Source: Bacteroidota bacterium
Lineage (GTDB): Bacteria > Bacteroidota > Bacteroidia > Palsa-948
Length of the DNA: 64,000 nucleotides
NCBI GenBank assembly: GCA_016213435.1
Contig: JACRAL010000028.1
Location: 2,196-66,195, forward strand
Direction of reading: 5' to 3'
Translations under genes and position numbers: made by a program
The notes under the pieces: generated by a model
The model's database searches: none
Told to the model about the DNA's origin: nothing
Seen by the model: only the letters and a program-made list of their open reading frames with translations
Part shown: one piece after another, positions 5,642-58,446 of the stretch
Numbering within the stretch: position 1 is the stretch's first letter
How the letters are laid out: each line of letters starts with the position of its first letter

Positions 5642-7117
5642 TCAAATCAGCCGAATAATAAAATCAGGAAAAATGCCCAATAGAAGAGCAAGCAGGATGG
5701 TGAGGATGAGAACAATTCTCAAGTCCCATCCAACCTCTGCGAAAGAGAGGAGTTCTCCCTTTTCTTCGACAGCTGTGGGTTGCGCCTGTAGGTCAGTTAG
5801 GGAGGGACTATACATTTTAATTATAATCCTGAAATAATAATACACCCCGATGAGTGAGCCAAGCACAGCAATCAGTACGAGCCAAACGTAACCACTTTGC
5901 AGCGCAGAGGTAAAAATGTAATATTTTCCAAAGAATCCGGCAAGCGGAGGAATTCCTGCGAGAGACAGCATGGAGATGGTCATGGCAAAGGATAGAAATT
6001 TATTTTGTTTTGCCAATCCGCTGAGTGTTTCAAAAGTAACAGTTGCTGGCTGTTGGTTGCGGGTAGCTTGATGATTCTCGATAATTGATAAAACGGTGAA
6101 TGCTCCAATCGTTGCAACTGAATAAGCAGCGGCATAGAACAGCACCGAACCCAAAGAATGATCGTTCATTGCAAGGATGGCAAGGAGCATGTATCCTGCA
6201 TGAGAAATACTGGAGTAAGCTAGCATTCGCTTAACACTTGTTTGATAAACGGCAGTGATGTTGCCAAGAAGGATTGTGAGAGCGGCAAGAACCCAGATAG
6301 TGTTCATCCACACGCTACCCATTCCTGAAAAACAAGTGAAGAATAGGCGGAGGAAAGCAGCGAAAGCAGCCGTCTTTACGATAGTTGCCATGAAAGCAGT
6401 TACAGGAGTAGGAGCACCAGTATAAACGTCAGGTGCCCAGAAATGAAATGGTACAGCTGAAATTTTGAAGCATAAACCAATCAGCATCATCAGTATACCT
6501 GCATACAATAATGGTTCTGCACCGGAAACTTTCCAGGTAGGAACCGTTGCTGAAGATGAAATAAAATAGCTGAGAGTTTTCAGGTCAAAAGTTCCGGTTG
6601 CACCATAGATGAGCGCAATTCCGAAGAGCAAAAATCCTGTAGCAAATGCACCCATCAGGAAATATTTCAACGAGGCTTCATTGGAAGAGAGAGAATCTTT
6701 TCTGCTTCCAGCAAGCACATACATCGGGATCGAAAGGATCTCAATGCCAAGGAAAAGCATCACCATGTTGGAATAAGATACCATGATCATTCCTCCGCAA
6801 AGGGCGAAGAGAACCAAAGCGTAATGATCGGTCTTGCTGGACCCGATAGCTATCGGGTCGCTGTCGAGAAAATTCTGCGACATCATAAACCAGAGAAAAG
6901 CAGTTGCGCAAAGCACAATAGTGAACAGAATGGCGAAATTATCGAACGTCATCATGTAATTGTAATAATGAATGTTCGTGTTCCAGTCTTTTACAGAAGA
7001 AGCAATCGCACCAAGCAATCCGATAAGTACGATTGGCAGCAAGAATTTTTTAAAGCGAAACATTTCCGCCAGCATTGCGATCACACCAAGAGCAGTGAGT
7101 ATGTACAGTGTCTTCAT
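5642..7117 (-). CDS. nuoN: NADH-quinone oxidoreductase subunit N
   Basis: 491-aa polytopic antiporter-like subunit; last gene of the nuo cluster. Confidence 0.9.
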   Translation of the reverse strand: MKTLYILTALGVIAMLAEMFRFKKFLLPIVLIGLLGAIASSVKDWNTNIHYYNYMMTFDNFAILFTIVLCATAFLWFMMSQNFLDSDPIAIGSSKTDHYALVLFALCGGMIMVSYSNMVMLFLGIEILSIPMYVLAGSRKDSLSSNEASLKYFLMGAFATGFLLFGIALIYGATGTFDLKTLSYFISSSATVPTWKVSGAEPLLYAGILMMLIGLCFKISAVPFHFWAPDVYTGAPTPVTAFMATIVKTAAFAAFLRLFFTCFSGMGSVWMNTIWVLAALTILLGNITAVYQTSVKRMLAYSSISHAGYMLLAILAMNDHSLGSVLFYAAAYSVATIGAFTVLSIIENHQATRNQQPATVTFETLSGLAKQNKFLSFAMTISMLSLAGIPPLAGFFGKYYIFTSALQSGYVWLVLIAVLGSLIGVYYYFRIIIKMYSPSLTDLQAQPTAVEEKGELLSFAEVGWDLRIVLILTILLALLLGIFPDFIIRLI

Positions 7118-17543: not shown

Positions 17544-20500
17544 ATGAGTAAATACACAGAATATAAAAACCTGAACCTTCCCGAAATAGGAAAGGAAATT
17601 CTTGATCTGTGGGAGAAAAACCACACCTTTGAAAAGAGCGTTACCTCGCGTGAAGGAGCTGAGCCCTTTGTTTTTTATGAAGGACCTCCATCAGCCAACG
17701 GCATGCCCGGCATTCATCACGTGATGGCACGAACCATAAAGGATTTATTCTGCCGTTACCAGACTTTAAAAGGAAAACAGGTAAAACGTAAAGCGGGTTG
17801 GGACACGCACGGGCTTCCGATCGAATTGGCGGTGGAAAAAACCTTAGGCATCACCAAGGAAGACATCGGAAAAAAAATCTCCATTGAAGATTACAACAAG
17901 GCATGCAGGACAGAGGTGATGAAGTATCAGGACAAATGGGAAGAAGTTACCCGTTTGATGGGATATTGGGTGGACATGAAACATCCGTATGTCACTTACG
18001 AAAACAATTACATCGAAAGTGTTTGGTGGCTGCTGAAAAAACTGTACGACAAAAAACTATTATATAAAGGATATACCATTCAGCCGTATTCTCCTGCTGC
18101 GGGAACGGGATTGAGTACGCATGAATTGAACCAACCGGGATGTTACAGGAATGTGAGGGATACGACTGCTGTGGCAATGTTCCGCCTCATCCCCAACCCT
18201 TCTCCGAAGGAGAAGGGAGAAATCCTCTCCTTTGGAGAGGATTTAGGTGAGGCGTATTTTCTTGCGTGGACGACAACTCCTTGGACTCTACCTTCGAATA
18301 CAGCCTTGGCTGTAGGAAAGAACATCAATTATGTTTTGATTGCTACCTTTAATCGTTTTACGTGGAAGAAATGTTTTGTGATTCTCGCGGAGGATTTATT
18401 TGGGAAGTATTTTCAGCGAATTGCAATTATTGGAAATTATACAGAAGAAGAAATTTTCAAAATACAAAACCCGTCTATTGCAGAGGCATTAAACCGCTTA
18501 GACAATCATCCGAAAGAGAAGAGAATTATTAACGGGCACGAATTAATCGGAGTTATTGTCTCAAGATTCACAGGAAAAGATATCGAAGGAATCCACTACG
18601 AACAACTTCTCCCTTTTAAAGCAAATGAAAAAGTGGAGTTGAACGGCAAACTCCTCCCCTTTGGGGAGGCGGGAGGGGCCGTTATTCTTGGAGATTTCGT
18701 TACCACCGAAGACGGAACCGGAATCGTTCACATAGCTCCAAGTTTTGGCGCGGATGACTTTAGAGTTGCGAAACAAAACGGAATTGGTTCGCTTACGCTG
18801 GTTGACAGGCGCGGAAAATTTTTTCCGGAAGTAAGAGATGATGTTTTTCTCTATGGAGACGAGTATGTGAAAGCAGAATATCTCACGGATACAGAAAAGC
18901 AAATTGAATTCCAAAAACAAAAAAAAGTTTTAGAAGCAGCTGGAAAAATTAAAGAACTGAAAGAATATCTAAGCGTTGATGAGCGCATTGTGCTGAAACT
19001 TCAGGAAGAAGGAAAGCTTTTTAAAAAAGAAAAATACGAGCACAGCTATCCTCATTGCTGGCGCACGGACAAACCTATTTTATATTATCCGCTTGACAGT
19101 TGGTTCGTGAAAGTGACTGAGTACAAAGACAGAATGGTAGAACTCAATAAAACCATCAACTGGAAACCGGCACATACAGGTACAGGGCGTTTTGGTGAGT
19201 GGCTGAACAATTTGCAGGATTGGAATTTGTCGCGCTCGCGCTTCTGGGGAATTCCGCTTCCGATCTGGAGAACAGAAGATGGCAAGGAAGAAAAAATTAT
19301 TGGTTCGGTGGATGATTTGAGAAAGGAAGTTAATAAAGCAGTACAGTCTGGTTTTATGAAGGTGTCCCCCTTTGAAGGGAGTGAGGAGGATGTGGATTTA
19401 CACAAACCGTATATCGACAGAGTATTTCTTGTTTCCGATTCAGGGAAAAAAATGACTCGTGAGTCAGATCTGATTGATGTCTGGTTCGATTCAGGCGCAA
19501 TGCCCTATGCTCAATGGCATTATCCGTTCGAAAATAAAGAAATGATTGATTCTCTCCCCTCTCCTGTGGGAGAGGGGTCTGGGGTGAGGCGGACCGGGGC
19601 TGCTTTCCCTGCCGACTTTATTGCAGAAGGAGTTGACCAAACCCGTGGATGGTTTTACACACTTCACGCTATTGCAGCTTTGTGTTTTGATTCGGTCGCT
19701 TATAAAAATGTGCTGAGCAATGGGTTGGTACTTGACAAGAATGGAAACAAGATGAGCAAACGCCTCGGCAATGCCGTTGATCCGTTCTCCACGCTTGAAA
19801 AATATGGTCCCGATGCGGTGCGCTGGTACATGGTCACAAATGCCGATCCTTGGGATAATTTAAAATTTGATTTGGAAGGAGTAGCAGAAAAGCAAAGAAG
19901 TTTTTTCGGAACGCTTTATAATACCTATGCTTTCTTTGCCCTTTATGCGAACATTGACAATTTCTCTTTTAAAGAAAAAGAAATTCCATTAAAAGACAAA
20001 CCCGAAATTGACCGATGGATTTTGTCAGAACTCAATTCGCTGATAAAATCGGTGGATGAAAGTTACAGCAGTTATGAGCCAACAAAAGCAGGCAGAGCGA
20101 TCGAAACTTTTGTGGACGAGCATTTGAGTAATTGGTATGTTCGTTTGTGCAGAAGGAGATTCTGGAAAGGAGAATACACACAGGATAAAATTTCTGCTTA
20201 TCAAACCTTATATCGTTGTCTGGAAGTGGTTGCGCAGCTTTCTTCGCCTATTGCACCTTTCTTCTGCGAGAAATTATTTAAAGACCTGAACGATATAACC
20301 GGAAGACAGAAAGCGGAGAGCGTGCATCTGAGTTTATTTCCAAAGATGGATGAGAGCTCTATTGATAAACCGCTGGAAGAGAGAATGGAAATAGCTCAGA
20401 AAATTTCTTCGATGATTCTTTCTATCCGGAAAAAGGAAAATATCCGTGTTCGTCAGCCACTTACAAAGATTCGAGTTCCGATATTGGATGATTCGTTCAA

Positions 20501-21134
20501 GAAAAAGCTGGAGCTTGTGAAAGATTTGATCCTTTCGGAAGTAAATGTAAAGGAGATTGAATATGTTGGAGAAGACGATGTACAAATCGTGAAAAACCTG
20601 AAGCTGAATTTCAAAACACTAGGTAAGAAATGTGGCAAACACATGAAAGCTGTTCAAGCGCATGCAACCGATCCTATTTATGCAAAACTTATTATCCAAT
20701 CTATTTCAAAAAATGATAGTTACGAAATAAAAATAGAGAACGAAACAATAGAACTTCTTCCTGAAGATGTTGAGATCATTCCGGTTGACATTCCGGGCTG
20801 GAAAGTGGCTAACAGCGGTGCGCTTACGGTCGCACTTGACATCACGCTTACCGAAAAATTAAAGGAGGAAGGAATAGCAAGGGAAATCGTAAATCGCATT
20901 CAGAATCTGCGAAAAGAGAAGAAATTTGAGGTTACAGATAAGATAGAAGTAAGGATAAAAGATCACAAGAAAATAAATTCAGCCATTTTAAATAATTTAG
21001 ATTACATTCGCGCGGAAATTTTGGCAAATACGTTTGAGATCGTCAGCGAGATTAATGGAAACGGCATTGAGATTGAAGTAGATGAAGAGATAAAAACAAT
21101 GGTCGAGATTGACCGCATTAAACAGTTAAACTAA
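17544..21134 (+). CDS. ileS: Isoleucine--tRNA ligase, carrying three in-frame palindromic-element insertions
   Basis: HIGH-type motif 'PSANGMPGIHH', 'WTTTPWTLP', 'WNLSRSRFWG' and KMSKS 'KMSKRLGN'. The 1196-aa length is about 50 aa longer than usual, owing to the GC-rich inserts. Confidence 0.95.
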   Translation: MSKYTEYKNLNLPEIGKEILDLWEKNHTFEKSVTSREGAEPFVFYEGPPSANGMPGIHHVMARTIKDLFCRYQTLKGKQVKRKAGWDTHGLPIELAVEKTLGITKEDIGKKISIEDYNKACRTEVMKYQDKWEEVTRLMGYWVDMKHPYVTYENNYIESVWWLLKKLYDKKLLYKGYTIQPYSPAAGTGLSTHELNQPGCYRNVRDTTAVAMFRLIPNPSPKEKGEILSFGEDLGEAYFLAWTTTPWTLPSNTALAVGKNINYVLIATFNRFTWKKCFVILAEDLFGKYFQRIAIIGNYTEEEIFKIQNPSIAEALNRLDNHPKEKRIINGHELIGVIVSRFTGKDIEGIHYEQLLPFKANEKVELNGKLLPFGEAGGAVILGDFVTTEDGTGIVHIAPSFGADDFRVAKQNGIGSLTLVDRRGKFFPEVRDDVFLYGDEYVKAEYLTDTEKQIEFQKQKKVLEAAGKIKELKEYLSVDERIVLKLQEEGKLFKKEKYEHSYPHCWRTDKPILYYPLDSWFVKVTEYKDRMVELNKTINWKPAHTGTGRFGEWLNNLQDWNLSRSRFWGIPLPIWRTEDGKEEKIIGSVDDLRKEVNKAVQSGFMKVSPFEGSEEDVDLHKPYIDRVFLVSDSGKKMTRESDLIDVWFDSGAMPYAQWHYPFENKEMIDSLPSPVGEGSGVRRTGAAFPADFIAEGVDQTRGWFYTLHAIAALCFDSVAYKNVLSNGLVLDKNGNKMSKRLGNAVDPFSTLEKYGPDAVRWYMVTNADPWDNLKFDLEGVAEKQRSFFGTLYNTYAFFALYANIDNFSFKEKEIPLKDKPEIDRWILSELNSLIKSVDESYSSYEPTKAGRAIETFVDEHLSNWYVRLCRRRFWKGEYTQDKISAYQTLYRCLEVVAQLSSPIAPFFCEKLFKDLNDITGRQKAESVHLSLFPKMDESSIDKPLEERMEIAQKISSMILSIRKKENIRVRQPLTKIRVPILDDSFKKKLELVKDLILSEVNVKEIEYVGEDDVQIVKNLKLNFKTLGKKCGKHMKAVQAHATDPIYAKLIIQSISKNDSYEIKIENETIELLPEDVEIIPVDIPGWKVANSGALTVALDITLTEKLKEEGIAREIVNRIQNLRKEKKFEVTDKIEVRIKDHKKINSAILNNLDYIRAEILANTFEIVSEINGNGIEIEVDEEIKTMVEIDRIKQLN

Positions 21135-21145
21135 TTTTTATCACC

Positions 21146-22042
21146 ATGGCAAAAGCAAAAAAGAAGGCAAAAGCCAAAGCAAAACCGGTTAAAAAGGTTA
21201 AGAAAGCTGCTTCAAAAAAGACAAAGAAAGTAACAGCAAAGAAGGCTGTTAAGAAAAAGGCTGTAAAAAAGAAACCCGTGGCGAAGAAAGCGGCTGCAAA
21301 GAAAAAAAACCTTGCGAAGAAAAAAACTGCAAAAGCGATAAAGAAGAAAGCTGTTAAGAAAGTTGTTGTGAAAAAAGCAACGAAGAAGGCCACTATAAAA
21401 GCAAAGCCTATTTCCAAGAAGGAAGAGAAAAGATTAAAAGCCATTCAGCATGCAATTCCTGTTCTTCCTTTAAAACCAATCCTTGAGGAGAAGCCGGAGA
21501 AAGAAAAAAAGAAAACCAAAGAAGAATTAGCCGAAGAGCGCGAACTGTTGGGAGAAGAAACTTATTCATGGGACAGCGGTACTTTTTCTGACATGAAAAA
21601 TTATGAACCACTTCCTGTATTCAGAAAGCCGGATCCTCCGCAACCAAAATTTAAAGGCAAGCCGGATAAGCGTACTCGTTATTCTGATAAAGAACTGAGT
21701 GAATTCAGAGGGATTATAAATGAGAAAATTGCCGAAGCAGAACGCGATTATGAACTTTTGAAGAACACGCTTGCTCATCGTGGTGAGCATGGCACGGATG
21801 ATACATCCCCCACTTTCAAAGTCTTGGAAGATGGATCGGACGCAATGTCGCGTGAAGAGATTGCTCAGCTTGCATCCCGTCAGGAACGTCATATTCAAAA
21901 TCTTAAGAATGCCCTTATCCGTATTGCAAATAAGACCTATGGAATTTGCCGTGTAACCGGAAAACTCATTCCGAAAGAAAGATTGCGCAGCGTTCCTCAT
22001 GCCACGCTCAGCATAGAAGCTAAACTGACGCAGAACTCTTAA
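21146..22042 (+). CDS. TraR/DksA-family protein with an N-terminal lysine/alanine-rich histone-H1-like tail
   Basis: The N-terminal ~115 aa are AKKA/KKAV repeats. The C-terminus, 'ELSEFRGIINEKIAEAE...YGICRVTGKLIPKERLRSVPHATLSIEAK', matches the DksA/TraR coiled-coil plus zinc-finger-like domain. The gene lies between ileS and lspA, the conserved position of the dksA-like gene. Confidence 0.7.
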   Translation: MAKAKKKAKAKAKPVKKVKKAASKKTKKVTAKKAVKKKAVKKKPVAKKAAAKKKNLAKKKTAKAIKKKAVKKVVVKKATKKATIKAKPISKKEEKRLKAIQHAIPVLPLKPILEEKPEKEKKKTKEELAEERELLGEETYSWDSGTFSDMKNYEPLPVFRKPDPPQPKFKGKPDKRTRYSDKELSEFRGIINEKIAEAERDYELLKNTLAHRGEHGTDDTSPTFKVLEDGSDAMSREEIAQLASRQERHIQNLKNALIRIANKTYGICRVTGKLIPKERLRSVPHATLSIEAKLTQNS

Positions 22043-22122
22043 AAAGTTTACAGTCTATGGTTTACAGTTTACGGTTTAAAACCAACTGTAAACCGTAGAC
22101 AGCAGACAGTAAACCGAATTTT

Positions 22123-22764
22123 GTGAAAAAAGCCGCACTCATCGTTTTTCTCGTTCTTCTGATTGATCAGGTTGTTAAGATATGGATCAAGACGCACATG
22201 ACTTTGGGCGATCAGATACCTGTTATTCAGAACTTATTTTACATACACTTTACTGAAAATTACGGAATGGCTTTCGGGCTGGAACTGGAGGGCAGTTACG
22301 GAAAATTGCTTTTGAGTTTGTTCCGCATCCTTGCGGTGGGCGGAATAGGCTGGTATCTCTACACGCTCGTGAAACAAAAAGCGCACAGCGGTCTCATCTT
22401 CAGCATTTCACTTATTATGGCAGGTGCTATAGGCAATATTCTTGACAGCGCATTTTACGGATTGGTGTTTTCAGAAAGCACCCCGATGGATGTCGCCATG
22501 TTCTTGCCGGCAGAAGGCGGCTATGCGGGTTTCCTGCATGGCGCTGTGGTGGATATGTTTTACTTCAATGTGTATTTTGAACATGTGTTCTGGAGCACAA
22601 CATCATTTCATTTCTCTTTTCCGATCTTTAATATTTCTGATTCTGCAATTACCATTGGGGTAGTTATCATCCTGCTTTTTCAGAAACTATTTTTTAAGAA
22701 GGAGGAACTGGATACCAATAACGGATCAGTTGCGAATGTTACAAATGAAAACGTTGCACCTTAA
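22123..22764 (+). CDS. lspA: Lipoprotein signal peptidase II
   Basis: 'FTENYGMAFG' and 'GNILDS' motifs of signal peptidase II, within a polytopic membrane protein. Confidence 0.85.
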   Translation: MKKAALIVFLVLLIDQVVKIWIKTHMTLGDQIPVIQNLFYIHFTENYGMAFGLELEGSYGKLLLSLFRILAVGGIGWYLYTLVKQKAHSGLIFSISLIMAGAIGNILDSAFYGLVFSESTPMDVAMFLPAEGGYAGFLHGAVVDMFYFNVYFEHVFWSTTSFHFSFPIFNISDSAITIGVVIILLFQKLFFKKEELDTNNGSVANVTNENVAP

Positions 22765-22816: not shown

Positions 22817-23452
22817 ATGGCGAAGCCAAAGCCAAAATACTACGTAGTCTGGAAAGGAAAAGAGCCGGGTATTTTTGATTCCTGGGATACGTGCAAGAAG
22901 CAAATCCAAAATTTTACAGGGGCACAATACAAATCCTTTAAAACAAAGGAAGCAGCAGAAAGCGCATTTAAATTATCATACAAAGATGCTATCATCTCAC
23001 CCCTCACTCCCCTCTCCACGAGGAGAGGGGAAGAGGGAGAGGTGGTTGGTTATCCCATGCTCGAAAGCATCTCTGTAGATGCCGCTTTTAACGGAAAGGT
23101 AATGGAGTACAAAGGCGTTTACACCAAAACAAAACAAGAACTATTCAAGCTGGGTCCTTTTGAAGATGCAACAAATAATATCGGGGAATTCCTCGCTATC
23201 GTGCATGCCTTGGGTTATCTGAAAAAACAGCACAGCACGGTTCCCGTTTATTCCGACAGTGTTACAGCCATCCACTGGGTGAAAACGCATAAGGCAAACA
23301 CCAAACTAAAAGAAACCCCTGCAAACAAATCTCTTTTCTTTCTTATTGAAAGAGCGGAAAAGTGGTTAAGCCAGAATAAATACCCTAATAAACTCCTCAA
23401 GTGGGAGACAAAAGCATGGGGAGAGAACCCTGCTGACTTTGGCAGGAAGTAA
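22817..23452 (+). CDS. rnhA: Ribonuclease HI with N-terminal RNA/DNA hybrid-binding domain (Cauli_VI-type)
   Basis: N-terminal 'YYVVWKGKEPGIFDSWDTCKKQIQNFTGAQYKSFKTKEAAESAF' hybrid-binding domain, then an RNase H catalytic core (D..E..D..D). A GC-rich palindromic insert lies in the linker. Confidence 0.8.
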   Translation: MAKPKPKYYVVWKGKEPGIFDSWDTCKKQIQNFTGAQYKSFKTKEAAESAFKLSYKDAIISPLTPLSTRRGEEGEVVGYPMLESISVDAAFNGKVMEYKGVYTKTKQELFKLGPFEDATNNIGEFLAIVHALGYLKKQHSTVPVYSDSVTAIHWVKTHKANTKLKETPANKSLFFLIERAEKWLSQNKYPNKLLKWETKAWGENPADFGRK

Positions 23453-46020: not shown

Positions 46021-46571
46021 TGACAGCATTTGCAACACAAATCCTAAACAACGGAGCCTCGCTGAAAATTATTTCAGCCGATGGAACTCGTAATATTTTG
46101 AAAAATCAAATCCATGAAGTGAGCGTAATCAACGACACGGTAATTAAAATTGATATTGGTCAGGGAGCGTTGAACAATATCTTCATCAATTTTCCCGAAG
46201 TCAGCAATCCTCAAACGCCAACTCCTGATGCACTCGTGGATGCAATCAACATAATGCTTCAAAATACTATTGTAATTCCTCCCGGCATTTCCACCGAGCT
46301 GAACCAACAAAAGGAAATTACGGACTTGGACAGCATAAAATCTTCCTTGCTGTTTCAGGCTCCGCAGATTTCCGATGAAACGAATCCGAAAACTATTTAT
46401 AAAGGATTCGCAGTTCCCGGCTCAAGAACTTCTGATGCAGTTTGGGCGATTCAGAAAATCACAAACAACAGGGGAATCTACACTTACCTGTGGGCGGGTG
46501 GAAATCAAAACTTTGACAAGGTTTGGGACAACCGAGCAACATTAATTTATCCGCCAAGTGCTAATGCGTAA
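46021..46571 (+). CDS. Hypothetical protein
   Basis: ATG at 46021 within the listed ORF 45936..46571; ends by overlapping the giant gene start. Confidence 0.4.
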
Positions 46572-49500
46572 GCATAAACCATATCAGGTAAAACCCGAAA
46601 TGATTTTCACGCTTGGGTATTTGCAGCAAGGCGAGATACCCGAAGTGAAACTGCGATTGAACAGGTCTTCCCGAAAAAAACTTTTCGGGAAGATTGGTTC
46701 ATCGAAAGATGTAGCAGATTTCATCCGTAAGATTTATAAACGCGGTGAAATTGAATTGCAGGAACAATTTATCGTGCTGTATCTCGACAGGGGAAATAAT
46801 ATTATTGGATTTTACAGGCATACCACAGGTGCGATAAGCGGAACGATTGCCGATGTGAGAATTATTCTTGCGGCTGCTTTGAAAAGCGCAAGCACTTCCA
46901 TTATTATAGCTCACAATCATCCAAGCGGAAACCTTCAACCAAGCCAAGCAGACATTGACCTCACAAAAAAGATAAAGGAAAGTGCGAACACAATGGATAT
47001 TTCCCTGCTTGACCATGTGATTGTAACAAAGGATGGTTATTATTCCTTCGGAGATGAAGGATTGGTTGGCTTGGAAGAAAATGAAATCGGTTTTGTAAAC
47101 AGCAAGCTCAAGCCGGATATCAATAAAGTGATTCAAGGCGATGTTCTCGAAACCCTAAAAGATTTTCCCGATGAGAGCGTGGACTGTGTTATCACTTCAC
47201 CTCCGTACTGGCAACTGCGCGACTATGGATGGAAAGGGCAATGGGGCTTGGAAAAAACTTTTGACAAGTACCTTGAGAATCTTTGGAAACTCATGGATGA
47301 AATCAGGCGCGTACTTAAACCGAAAGGAACTGTTTGGATTAATCTTGGCGACACTTACGGAACACAGTCGGGAACGGGCCGGGGAACGCAGTACATCAGC
47401 AAAAGCACAAAGCACCATGTAGAAAACGGAGCAACTCTCATCAAAGGAAAAGCTCCGCATAAATCACAATTATTAATTCCGCATCGCTTCGCTATCGGGT
47501 GTATGGAACGCGGATGGATTGTACGCAATGATATTATTTGGGCGAAGAAAAATTCAATGCCTGAAAGCGTGAAAGACCGTTTTGCAAAAAAGCATGAGTA
47601 CGTTTTCTTGATGGTAAAAGAAAAGGATTATTATTTCGATTTGGACAGCGTGAGAGAACCGCATAAGGCAGAATCAGTCGAGAGAACAAAGCGCGGATGG
47701 AACGGACACAGGGAAAAAGGAAGTTCGTATGAAAACATGGATGAAAAAAAGATGTGCCACCCTGACGGAAAGAATCCCGGAGACATTTCTGATTTTTGGA
47801 AAATTCAAAACAAAGGCGGACACGATAAACACTATGCAAAATACAGTTCCGACTTACTCACCAAGCCGATTCTTGCAGGTTGTCCCAAAGGCGGAATTGT
47901 ACTGGACCCGTTCTGCGGGACTGCAAGCACAGGCGTAAGGGCGATTGAACTCGGAAGAAAATTCATCGGCATTGAAGGGAAGAAAGAATACTGCCACATA
48001 GCCGAAAAGAATCTGAAAAATATTTCCCTGAACGGATTGGGATTACTCAGCACTATTCCCAAGTGGCAGTTCGTTGAAAAAGTTGAAAAGGATTTGGAGA
48101 AAAAAATTTCCTACAACAAACGCTCTATTGAAAAACTTGCAGCAACCTTCGGAATCCACGATAAAACTTTGGTGAAGGAACTTACAGAACTTGCTATTGT
48201 ACGCAGGGCAAGATCCCTCGCGCACAGTCAGGAAAGCGAAAAGGAAAAATTTGATTCCATTGTTGAGCTATACAACAGCCAGGTCAATCTTTCCCACCGC
48301 ACAAGCCAAAGTATTTTATTGCAACAATATTCTACGCCCGCGCCAATCACATTCCTCGCAGGAATATTTGTTGGCGCGGACAAAGGCGTTTCTGTTTTTG
48401 AACCAAGCGCAGGAAATGGATTATTGACGATTGCAGGAACAGAGCAGAATATTATTGTAAATGAAATTGATTCTGTACGCAGGGAAAATCTGCACACGCA
48501 GGGGTACAAAATGGTTTTGAACCGCGATGCGACAAAACCATTTCCTGAGTTTTATCAAAAGATGAGCGCAGTTATTACCAATCCCCCTTTCGGTACGCTT
48601 GATACCGAAGTGATGTACGATAACTTTCCGATTAAAACGCTCGACCACCTGATGGCTCTGCGTGCGCTCGATACGATGAGGGACAACGGAAAGGCATCCA
48701 TCATAATCGGTGGGCACACGCAATGGGATGAGAAAGGCAGAATACAGGCAGGAAAGAACCGAATCTTTTTCAATTATCTGTATAGCCGCTATAACGTAAT
48801 TGACGTAATCAATATTGACGGCAGTTTATATTCACGGCAGGGAACATCCTTCGATGTGAGATTGATTTTGATTGACGGCAGAAAAAAAAATCCGCAGGGA
48901 GCCGCGCCTGTAAAAAATTCCGAACTATCTAATACTGTAAAAACATTTGATGCTTTATACGAAAGGGTGAACGATGCAATTAGCGCAAGCGGGCTTTCGG
49001 AAATCAAAAGATTCAATTCTCTGAAAGAAAAATATCCCGATGTGGTTTTGCTTTTAAATACAGGAAGTTTTTACGAAACATTCGGGGAAGATGCTGTTGC
49101 AACCTCAAAAATTATCGGAACTGTTTTATCGCATCGCAACGGTATTCCCGTAACGGGCTTCCCGCTTGTTTCCCTCGACAGTTATTTATCAAAACTCGTG
49201 AGAAGCGGAAACAAAGTAGCGATTGCCGATGAATTACAAAATCCAAAATCAATGAAACAAAATATTTCTTCTTTAGAACGCGAAGCATTGGCTTTGCAAA
49301 GACAACTTTTAGGCGAGGAACTTGGCTCGCCCTACATTCCCGCTTCCGAATCCTGCGTTGTGCTGAATACGCAAGTTCCCGATTCGATGAGCTTTGAAAC
49401 GCAGAAAGCACTCGAACAAATCCGTGAAGAAGTTGGCGGAGACATTGATGCGTTTGTACGGCATAGATTAAATTTTCGTAGTAAGATGGAACTCTGCAAG

Positions 49501-56517: not shown

Positions 56518-58446
56518 CTATTTAGGCAAGGATGAATTTTGTTGTGCCGAATTCAAAGCGGCTCTTGCTTTCTGAAGGTTGCCTGCAATATTTTTGTTGT
56601 TCGGATTCAACTGAAGTGCTTTCTCATAGTACGAAACAGCAGTTTTATAGTCCCCAAGGTTATGATTGATCGCCCCAAGATTCCCAAGCGCATCCGGATT
56701 ATTTGCATCATATTGGATTGCCTGCAGAAAATATTTTTTAGCCGACTCATAATCTTTGCGTTCAAAATAGATCACTCCGAGGTTATTTGCAGCAGAGGTA
56801 TAATCAGGCGAAACTTTTAGAGTCTGCTCGTAAACCTTCTCAGCGTTTTCCCTGTCTCCCATTCCATAATAGCAAACACCGGCATTGTAAAGTGCTTCCG
56901 TATTGTCAGGTAAAATCTCAATTGCTTTTTTATAATATGCAATTGCTTTTTGAAAAAGAGCAGATCGTTTGTTGGGAACCGGTTCTTTTTCCGCGAGTTC
57001 TCGATAGGAAGAACCGAGCGCACTTTCCGCCCTTGAACTTTTAGGAGTTGCTTCAACTCCTGATGCAAAAAGCGAGAAATTATCTTTCCAGTCTTTGTTG
57101 CGGTTAAATGTTTTGAAGGAGAACAACGCAAGGACAACAAACAAAATGATGCCCCGACCCTGAAGGGAGAAGAAGGAACTGCGATTGCTCCCTTTAGGGT
57201 TGGGGCAAATCACTACTGCAACAGCAATACAAAACGCCAATGACGGAGTGAACAAAAACCGTTCTCCCAGCGTTGCACCGATCATGATGAAGATGTTTGA
57301 TACCACCGACATCGTAACAAAAAAAAACAAAATGCAGTAAGCATAAACAGCCATTGCTGATTGCTGATTTCTGGTCTCTGGTTTTCTGAGCAATTGGACT
57401 AAAAAATGTAAAGAATAAATTCCAAGTACGGCAAACACACACAATATGAGAATAACTTTAATATCCGAGAAAGAAACAATCGGTATTTGATTGAAAGAAT
57501 AATCCCACGAAAGGGGATGAGGAAAAAATAAAAGCAGAATATATTTTCCAAGAATTAAAAGCGCAGTGGCTATCCTGTCTGAACCGTTTGTAGCTGCAGC
57601 CAGTGCGTTGTTCACCACTTTCATTTTCTCAGCAAAAGTTACGGTCTCAAGCACCGAACTTCGTATAACCATATAAACTCCGAATGCAGCAGCAAAAGAG
57701 ATCATGCCGAGTCCGATTTTTTTCAAAGGAACACTTCGAAAAAAAAATATCGTCAGCGGGATAATCGCAAGAAATGTTACCGCCATTTCTTTGCAAAGAA
57801 GAGAGAGAAAGAAGAACAGAACGCTCAAAAAGAAATATTTTTTAAAACCCGTATCAATATGTTTAAGGATGAAAAGAAGTACGAACTCAAAAAAAATAAA
57901 GTTCAATATGTCGTCTCTGCCTTTTATGTTTGCCACTGCTTCGGTGTGAATGGGATGAGCAGCAAAAAGCAAGGTGATGACCAGAGGAATGACCTCACCC
58001 CCAACCCCTCTCCCAAAGGAGAGGGGAGAAGATTTCTCGTTAAACAATTGTTTCATCAAACGAAAAAGTAAAACACACGACAATGCAAATAACAAAACAT
58101 TTATAAAATGCCCCGTATGCGGATTATTTTCAAAAAAATGTTTTTCGATTGCAAAAATGACAGACACCACAGGGCGGTAGGACTGATCATTATGCCCCGT
58201 GAAACCGTAAATAAAACTATGATGGAGAATACTTGGTATGCCGCTCAATCCCGCCTGAACATCTTTGTTCTTCAAATACACCACATCGTCATCCAGCACA
58301 TAGCCGTGGTTCAGCGTGTTTGCGTAAAGCAAAAATGCAAAAGCAAAAACAATAAATGAAAGTAAACGGTCTTTTGTGGAAAGAGAAGGCTTGTTTGCAG
58401 GTCGGGATTTAAAATCCCGACCAACTGACTTCTTTTTTTTGTTCAT
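56518..58446 (-). CDS. Multi-pass membrane protein with C-terminal TPR repeats (TMTC/PMT_2-like glycosyltransferase-type architecture)
   Basis: ~11 transmembrane helices, then at least four TPR motifs ('ALYNAGVCYYGMGD', 'AANNLGVIYFERKDY', 'ALGNLGAINHNLGDY'). The CDS contains two in-frame GC-rich palindromic inserts. Confidence 0.7.
   Translation of the reverse strand: MNKKKKSVGRDFKSRPANKPSLSTKDRLLSFIVFAFAFLLYANTLNHGYVLDDDVVYLKNKDVQAGLSGIPSILHHSFIYGFTGHNDQSYRPVVSVIFAIEKHFFENNPHTGHFINVLLFALSCVLLFRLMKQLFNEKSSPLSFGRGVGGEVIPLVITLLFAAHPIHTEAVANIKGRDDILNFIFFEFVLLFILKHIDTGFKKYFFLSVLFFFLSLLCKEMAVTFLAIIPLTIFFFRSVPLKKIGLGMISFAAAFGVYMVIRSSVLETVTFAEKMKVVNNALAAATNGSDRIATALLILGKYILLLFFPHPLSWDYSFNQIPIVSFSDIKVILILCVFAVLGIYSLHFLVQLLRKPETRNQQSAMAVYAYCILFFFVTMSVVSNIFIMIGATLGERFLFTPSLAFCIAVAVVICPNPKGSNRSSFFSLQGRGIILFVVLALFSFKTFNRNKDWKDNFSLFASGVEATPKSSRAESALGSSYRELAEKEPVPNKRSALFQKAIAYYKKAIEILPDNTEALYNAGVCYYGMGDRENAEKVYEQTLKVSPDYTSAANNLGVIYFERKDYESAKKYFLQAIQYDANNPDALGNLGAINHNLGDYKTAVSYYEKALQLNPNNKNIAGNLQKARAALNSAQQNSSLPK

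Follow-up and report, generated by a model that had tools for sequence, protein, structure and literature searches.

The stretch of DNA analysed here, hereafter the window, comprises 64,000 nucleotides (nt) from a Bacteroidota bacterium (GTDB lineage Bacteria; Bacteroidota; Bacteroidia; Palsa-948; assembly GCA_016213435.1, contig JACRAL010000028.1, positions 2,196 to 66,195 of the forward strand). Between ileS, encoding isoleucyl-tRNA synthetase (IleRS), and lspA it contains a dksA-like gene whose product joins a lysine-rich N-terminal tail, by way of a proline-rich spacer, to a DksA/TraR-fold core (Table 1). A first-pass annotation of this DNA had described a single open reading frame (ORF) of 298 amino acids at this position fusing the two modules, and both the ORF and the fusion are confirmed by the analyses reported below.

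The tailed dksA-like gene

The dksA-like locus is one real translated gene. Among 5.8 billion proteins searched, thousands proved to be relatives, and ~115 of the best 120 listed carry a Lys/Ala(/Pro) tail in frame with the core (260–360 amino acids) and start with MAKAKKK or MAKK. A public contig from a separate assembly (L081, Logan assembly, run SRR12113407) encodes a protein identical over all 298 amino acids. Gene order is common to the close relatives P0004, P0005, P0013 and P0050, which share RidA-ileS-X-lspA-RNase H with X denoting the dksA-like gene, and the MAKAKKK N-terminus is conserved directly downstream of the ileS stop. Codon comparison with three relatives gave ratios of nonsynonymous to synonymous substitution rates (dN/dS) of 0.14–0.21 for the tail, ~0.1 for the spacer and 0.04 for the core, the synonymous divergence of the tail being 0.43–0.85. 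In the first 172 codons only the coding frame is uninterrupted, the other two forward frames having 8–9 stops apiece; at this base composition a frame of that length would be open with a probability of ~5e-5.

A frameshift, an assembly collapse or a wrong start could also have produced such a gene, by joining an H1-like ORF or A-rich noncoding DNA to a dksA-like gene of ~126 amino acids. In keeping with an artefact, the tail DNA is 51% A, with A-runs reaching 8 nt, and the related genome L038 has an assembly gap within its tail repeat. We nevertheless regard this explanation as exceedingly improbable and reject it, given the in-frame fusion in ~115 independent sequences, the identical protein in a second assembly, the MAKAKKK start kept right after the ileS stop, a tail dN/dS well below 1 and the closed alternative frames. 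Nor is the tail of the window a true tandem repeat. A slippage-prone exact repeat had been suspected there and is rejected, as Tandem Repeats Finder detects only weak arrays, the best having a period of 33, 2.5 copies and 76% matches; with no clean tandem repeat in the tail DNA, repeat collapse is therefore unlikely in the window. The lysine codons of the tail are AAG in 48% of cases versus 28% in neighbouring genes (p ~0.01), an enrichment that, in our own interpretation, would fit avoidance of long poly-A runs. The F-rich ORF antisense to the tail is the mere complement of the AAA/AAG-rich coding strand, and was rightly dismissed as an artefact in the first-pass annotation.

Assignment of the C-terminal module to the DksA/TraR family is borne out by domain models, by structures of known proteins and by the predicted fold. 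The Pfam model zf-dskA_traR (PF01258) matches residues 264–292 at 32.4 bits, above its gathering cut-off of 24.9. The top NCBIfam match is YteA (TIGR02890), which at 49.9 bits lies below the subfamily cut-off of 134.4, and the curated TraR model of the same collection likewise scores sub-threshold. The nearest Protein Data Bank (PDB) entries by sequence are the Dks protein of Chlamydia trachomatis (6ptg, E = 1e-7) and DksA2 of Pseudomonas aeruginosa (4ijj, 8e-6). An AlphaFold2 model built from a 116-sequence alignment places the core in a coiled-coil hairpin, the two helices of which have 10-residue block means of 88–94 in predicted local distance difference test (pLDDT) score, followed by a beta hairpin (strands 265–267 and 274–276) and a C-terminal helix (290–297). 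The best Foldseek matches to this model include 4ijj, 1tjl, 7khi, 5vsw and 6ptg; the top six are all DksA2, DksA or Chlamydia Dks (probability 0.92–1.00), and Escherichia coli DksA, both free and bound to RNA polymerase, is among the best structural matches. The product is a DksA-family protein and not a canonical DksA equivalog.

The tip loop of the hairpin is ~20 residues long and contains the stretch TDDTSPTFK (T217–K225), invariant in the long forms of the protein described below, and then E228-D-G-S-D232. D229 and D232 align with both tip Asp residues of DksA2; across 75 Bacteroidota sequences, long and short, the former is D or E and the latter mostly D or E. D218-D219, also in the loop, are invariant except in one short form, and either this pair or D229 and D232 may form the functional tip. 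In the 75 sequences C268 is invariant, and T271 and A292 are nearly so. A C4 zinc finger (CxxC-x17-CxxC) was rejected, one Cys of the four being kept. Of the DksA-type C-terminal finger in the first-pass annotation the family match therefore stands and the C4 zinc finger does not. As read from these residues, the core is predicted to carry a zinc-free finger of the DksA2 or Chlamydia type.

The tail is 48% K, 22% A and 10% V, with an isoelectric point (pI) of 11.3 and a net charge of +45. Its lysines are irregularly spaced in (A/V)KK fashion, proline makes up only 3% and S/TPKK motifs are absent. A K/R-rich stretch of 30 residues (16/30) in the ORF is unmatched by any other ORF of the window. 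The tail had been given as ~115 residues of H1- or Hc1-like sequence. The Lys/Ala-rich composition is as described, but it ends near residue 96, with disorder and no folded domain predicted by AlphaFold2 for residues 1–122. H1, Hc1 and HC2 gave no Pfam match to the window protein at E<=1, on which ground true homology to any of the three is rejected, and a precomputed PF07382 match is present in only two relatives (P0083 and P0106). The H1 likeness of the tail is compositional only, resembling the C-terminal domain of histone H1.

The spacer of 76 residues is of mixed charge and proline-rich, comprising a charged segment EKPEKEKKKTKEELAEERELLGEE and then a conserved Pro/aromatic motif YSWDSGTFSDMKNYEPLPVFRKPDPPQPKFKGK with the consensus YSWDSGTFSDMKNYEPxPVFRKPDPPQPKFKGK. 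The motif is conserved in alignments A1 and A2, with little or no variation at P162, P167 and K168, and in sister clades it takes related forms that share an RKP...PKP-x-I core. Short helices are predicted at 126–137 and 147–151, with pLDDT of 67–73 over residues ~150–180.

Table 1. Positions in the window of the tailed dksA-like gene, its parts and other features
Feature	Position	Strand	Evidence
Tailed dksA-like gene, ATG start, 298 amino acids plus stop codon	21146..22042	+	ORF listing; >100 full-length homologues
Lys/Ala/Val-rich disordered tail, residues 1-96	21146..21433	+	Composition; pLDDT <50; dN/dS 0.14-0.21
Spacer, residues 97-172	21434..21661	+	Alignments; dN/dS ~0.1
Conserved Pro/aromatic motif, residues 140-172	21563-21661	+	Conserved in alignments A1 and A2
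DksA/TraR-fold core, residues 173-298 (126 amino acids)	21662..22039	+	PF01258; PDB and Foldseek matches; dN/dS 0.04
Predicted coiled-coil hairpin: helix 181-215, tip loop 216-235, helix 236-261	21686..21928	+	AlphaFold2
Degenerate zinc-ribbon region, residues 264-292	21935..22021	+	Pfam; sequence; 75-sequence conservation
ileS, 1196 amino acids	17544..21134	+	ORF listing; Pfam tRNA-synt_1 on orthologous neighbours
lspA, 213 amino acids, Peptidase_A8	22123..22764	+	ORF listing; Pfam PF01252 on identical L081 gene
Antisense F-rich ORF, 108 amino acids, not a gene	21118..21444	-	ORF listing; sense frame conserved and under purifying selection
Strong hairpin, gap between dksA-like gene and lspA	22046..22114	+	Inverted repeat and RNA fold
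Palindromic element, four copies	18224-18240, 19558-19575, 23011-23028, 58007-58024		

Only 11 nt separate the ileS stop from the dksA-like start, making co-transcription of the two genes likely; the end of the dksA-like gene lies 80 nt from lspA, downstream of which is an RNase H-like gene. The gap before lspA holds a hairpin with imperfect 31-nt arms (-29.2 kcal/mol, z = -6.15), followed only by a short T-run. It was not recognised as an intrinsic terminator in a consensus scan, and may act in the ileS-X-lspA unit as an attenuator or as a stem that stabilises the mRNA. Scanning around the dksA-like gene for sigma-70 promoters and terminators gave nothing useful, Bacteroidota promoters differing from the consensus scanned. 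There is no second DksA-like gene in the window.

Two further features of the window are recorded here. A GC-rich palindrome, CCTCTCC-N3-4-GGAGAGG (consensus ~35–45 nt), is present in four copies versus none in 100 shuffles. Two of these lie in frame inside ileS, one as a 14-amino-acid insertion LPSPVGEGSGVRRT absent from the IleRS of close relatives, and a third lies inside the RNase H-like gene; the element looks like a miniature palindromic repeat able to insert itself within coding sequence, as the Rickettsia palindromic elements do. The second feature covers positions 46558-54459 and 56353-56440. It includes an ORF of 2128 amino acids whose N-terminus is RadC/JAB-like and which also has DNA-methylase motifs and a region resembling a helicase, a following ORF of 491 amino acids containing a K/E-rich stretch, and a tRNA gene close by on the minus strand. 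The whole looks like part of an integrated mobile element.

Distribution of long and short forms in the Bacteroidota

A pattern scan of GTDB species genomes returned at least 80 loci. The closest genomes to the window are not among the matches listed, and the best IleRS identity to the window in the fetched loci is 67%. In the 80 loci listed, a few of which are truncated by contig ends, the gene sits between ileS and lspA wherever the flanks are present, in agreement with the conserved position claimed for it in the first-pass annotation. Comparing the length of the ileS-adjacent gene across the phylum, as had been proposed, separates two forms. Long forms of 226–456 amino acids with Lys/Ala/Pro-rich tails occupy ~48 of the 80 loci and short forms of 123–151 amino acids, starting a few residues before an RYSD motif, occupy ~28. 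In a neighbour-joining tree of the core (126 residues, without bootstrap support) the half containing the window is uniformly long and the other half, with Flavobacteriales and Bacteroidales labels, mixes long and short forms, which suggests that the tail was gained or lost several times among Bacteroidota.

A HMMER search of 1.84 billion cluster representatives recovered 3195 relatives of the core at E<=1e-3. In 84 of the best 150 of these the core is preceded by a K-rich N-terminal extension of 41–331 residues (median 186). The best 150 are representatives of 50%-identity clusters, and long forms are probably over-counted among them, since proteins whose tails have diverged fall into different clusters. 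Some representatives also have C-terminal extensions, which were dismissed on inspection as read-through or frameshift junk. Databases name these relatives only 'DksA' or 'DnaK suppressor protein', and our literature search found no paper on the tailed proteins of Bacteroidota.

The tails themselves vary in layout. In a clade whose members mostly bear the label Sphingobacteriaceae, a long acidic Asp/Glu block and then a KRGRGRRKK or TRGRKK motif stand between the Lys-rich tail and the core, an HMGA-like arrangement of basic, acidic and AT-hook-like segments (L016 5335-6432 and L072 5398-6423; also L019, L021, L023-L026 and L028). Some Flavobacteriales-type tails contain near-perfect tandem peptide repeats (L068 3408-4673, L033, L036 and L040), such as GAIIIAPSKKKAVIAPSKK in L068 and, in both L036 and L040, AKKAAPAKKVVAKK; slippage probably lengthens and shortens these tails. 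At L038 ~5700-5810 a run of N falls inside the tail repeat, so that the gene is mis-read as a short form of 128 amino acids preceded by a 590-nt 'intergenic' gap, a caution for automated surveys of length. Several short forms (L044, L046, L047, L070 and L074; 131–144 amino acids) still start with MAKKK or MAKKV before the core, a start that may be either a vestige of the Lys-rich tail or its seed.

Proposed function of the tailed protein

We favour, with moderate confidence, the reading that the long form encoded at ileS-X-lspA is a DksA-like RNA-polymerase factor tethered to DNA by its tail. We infer the binding to RNA polymerase, the binding to DNA and the logic of tethering as follows. The core would, by homology, insert into the secondary channel of RNA polymerase. 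The disordered tail would bind DNA non-specifically and so tether or concentrate the factor on the nucleoid, possibly condensing the DNA, by analogy with the Streptomyces protein DdbA and the myxobacterial protein CarD (see below). The conserved Pro/aromatic spacer would join the one to the other.

Several observations weigh against this reading. Many Bacteroidota orthologues function without a tail, and the tail of the window protein is poor in proline, lacks S/TPKK and matches none of H1, Hc1 and HC2 significantly. The core misses both NCBIfam DksA equivalogs by a wide distance (TIGR02420, 39.2 versus 115.5 bits; NF033459, 36.2 versus 105 bits), and three of its four zinc ligands are lost, C268 being the only Cys and T271, S289 and A292 occupying the other ligand positions. 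The tip is a loop of ~20 residues rather than the tight DxxDxA turn, and the position of the Ala is taken by Met, Leu, Asn or Thr. Because the tip loop is long and this Ala is replaced, insertion into the secondary channel is proposed by homology only.

The same features bear on a further explanation, in which the core is a diverged DksA/TraR fold that does not act as a secondary-channel factor and has a role tied to ileS or lspA, served by the tail. The sub-threshold scores of the curated DksA, YteA and TraR models, the degenerate zinc finger and the unusually long tip loop would all suit such a protein, and our literature search found no experimental work on a Bacteroidota orthologue. The top structural and sequence matches are, however, all to DksA-family proteins that bind RNA polymerase, the acidic residues of the putative tip are conserved, and the product of ylyA, the Bacillus gene at this position, is reported to be an RNA-polymerase-binding protein. 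We consider this explanation very improbable.

Acceptance of a DksA-family core still leaves the ligand of the tail to be considered. DNA is not the sole candidate because comparable tails bind polyphosphate or mRNAs, which is a further point against tethering to DNA. In Pseudomonas, the Lys/Ala/Pro H1-like tail of AlgP localises to polyphosphate granules (PMC9239181) and the KPAA region of PhaF binds specific mRNAs (PMC12818456). The tail in the Bacteroidota protein might likewise target another polyanion, such as polyphosphate granules, mRNA, rRNA or nascent transcripts, and place the factor, in starvation, in condensates of polyphosphate or RNA rather than on DNA. As a featureless polycation it could not discriminate between ligands by charge alone. 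Set against this, DdbA, the only studied protein with the exact two-module layout, binds and condenses DNA via its tail, and RNA polymerase acts on DNA, making DNA the nearest polyanion. We judge a ligand other than DNA to be the main rival to tethering, conceivable but unlikely.

The tail may also need no ligand, serving as a disordered appendage that governs the turnover or solubility of the factor or its self-association into condensates, for example through the polyphosphate-stimulated proteolysis of Lys-rich proteins. Its poor conservation, its range of lengths from ~40 to 330 residues and its repeated gain and loss are what one would expect of an appendage, and the acidic block following the tail in some relatives suggests that charge patterning outweighs any motif. 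Yet the extreme Lys content is kept by purifying selection in all lineages, and all bacterial tails of this kind that have been studied bind a polyanion, leaving a ligand-free tail improbable. Tethering of a DksA-like factor to DNA remains the reading that we prefer, at the moderate confidence given above.

Significance and comparison with known systems

The usual picture of a DksA-family factor is of a small soluble protein reaching RNA polymerase by diffusion. In the present case a whole branch of the Bacteroidota carries 40–330 residues of polylysine-type disorder on a DksA-family orthologue, a layout that is widespread yet undescribed in this phylum and that follows a design, that of DdbA, previously thought to be confined to Streptomyces. 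The design is therefore not new in principle; it is its breadth, its recurrence at one locus in two phyla and the existence of natural long and short pairs that open the tethering hypothesis to direct test. With hundreds of naturally occurring length variants and matched tail-less orthologues, one could ask whether tethering to DNA, polyphosphate or RNA alters transcription control. More tentatively, and with less than even confidence, we suggest that in a large and mostly uncultured branch of the Bacteroidota a housekeeping DksA-type factor may be constitutively bound to the nucleoid or to a polyanion condensate, the fusion perhaps having arisen independently at the same ileS-X-lsp locus in Streptomyces and in the Bacteroidota, and several times within the latter. 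If true, such recurrence would indicate a general advantage in coupling a secondary-channel factor physically to chromatin.

One comparison is with the short Bacteroidota TraR/DksA proteins (123–151 amino acids), which are orthologous to the core at 50–70% identity and occupy the same ileS-X-lspA position. They have in common with it the tip motifs TDDTSPTF and EDGS(D/E) and a finger with a single Cys but lack the tail and spacer, several keeping only a brief 'MAKKK...' N-terminus. P. aeruginosa DksA2 (4ijj) and C. trachomatis Dks (6ptg) resemble the core in having a coiled coil and a ribbon with replaced Cys ligands. They differ in having no polycationic extension and a tight-turn tip instead of a 20-residue loop, and their identity to it is 19–28%. 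The YlyA/YteA family (TIGR02890) shares the adjacency to ileS and provides the best NCBIfam match, although YlyA has no basic tail. In Bacillus subtilis ylyA lies next to ileS and has a role in germination (PMC5282499).

Basic tails resembling the one described here occur on other bacterial proteins. Chlamydial Hc1 and Hc2, HupS, mycobacterial HupB, AlgP and PhaF all have Lys/Ala(/Pro)-rich, disordered, polyanion-binding polycations; none of these is attached to a DksA fold, and their ligands are DNA, polyphosphate or mRNA. The CarD proteins share the design, combining a module of a family that interacts with RNA polymerase (CarD_CdnL_TRCF) with a basic, eukaryote-like DNA-binding tail. The tail is HMGA-like in myxobacterial CarD and H1-like in Anaeromyxobacter CarD, and is essential for activity (PMC2919716). 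The RNA-polymerase-binding fold of CarD is unrelated to that of DksA, however, and its tail is C-terminal.

The closest known protein is DdbA of Streptomyces coelicolor (SCO2075), in which a 93-residue H1-like N-terminus (pI 10.5) precedes a C-terminus resembling DksA. In vitro, DNA is bound and condensed by the tail of DdbA but not by its C-terminal domain on its own. Nucleoid condensation and supercoiling are altered in the ddbA mutant, and overexpression suppresses a relA phenotype (PMC3643593). Aldridge et al. 2013 stated that DdbA orthologues, and the N-terminal half especially, are specific to streptomycetes (PMC3643593). Since SCO2074 is lsp (PMC4941574) and SCO2076 is the isoleucyl-tRNA synthetase gene ileS (PMC3276577), ddbA stands in the same ileS-X-lsp position as the window gene. 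The three genes, ylyA, ddbA and that of the Bacteroidota, are thereby linked as holders of a single ancient position.

As judged from the published description of DdbA, the two proteins share a basic Lys-rich N-terminus before a DksA-like domain, the ileS/lsp position and two conserved Asp residues in the putative tip. They differ in that DdbA keeps a four-Cys zinc finger where the window protein has one Cys, and in that the DdbA tail contains five S/T-A/T-A-K-K pentapeptides where the window tail is irregular. The Bacteroidota protein, from another phylum, has the conserved Pro/aromatic spacer in addition. Short forms stand between the two lineages, so that each probably acquired its tail on its own. 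With the Bacteroidota long form, the DdbA design thus recurs in a second phylum at one and the same ancient locus.

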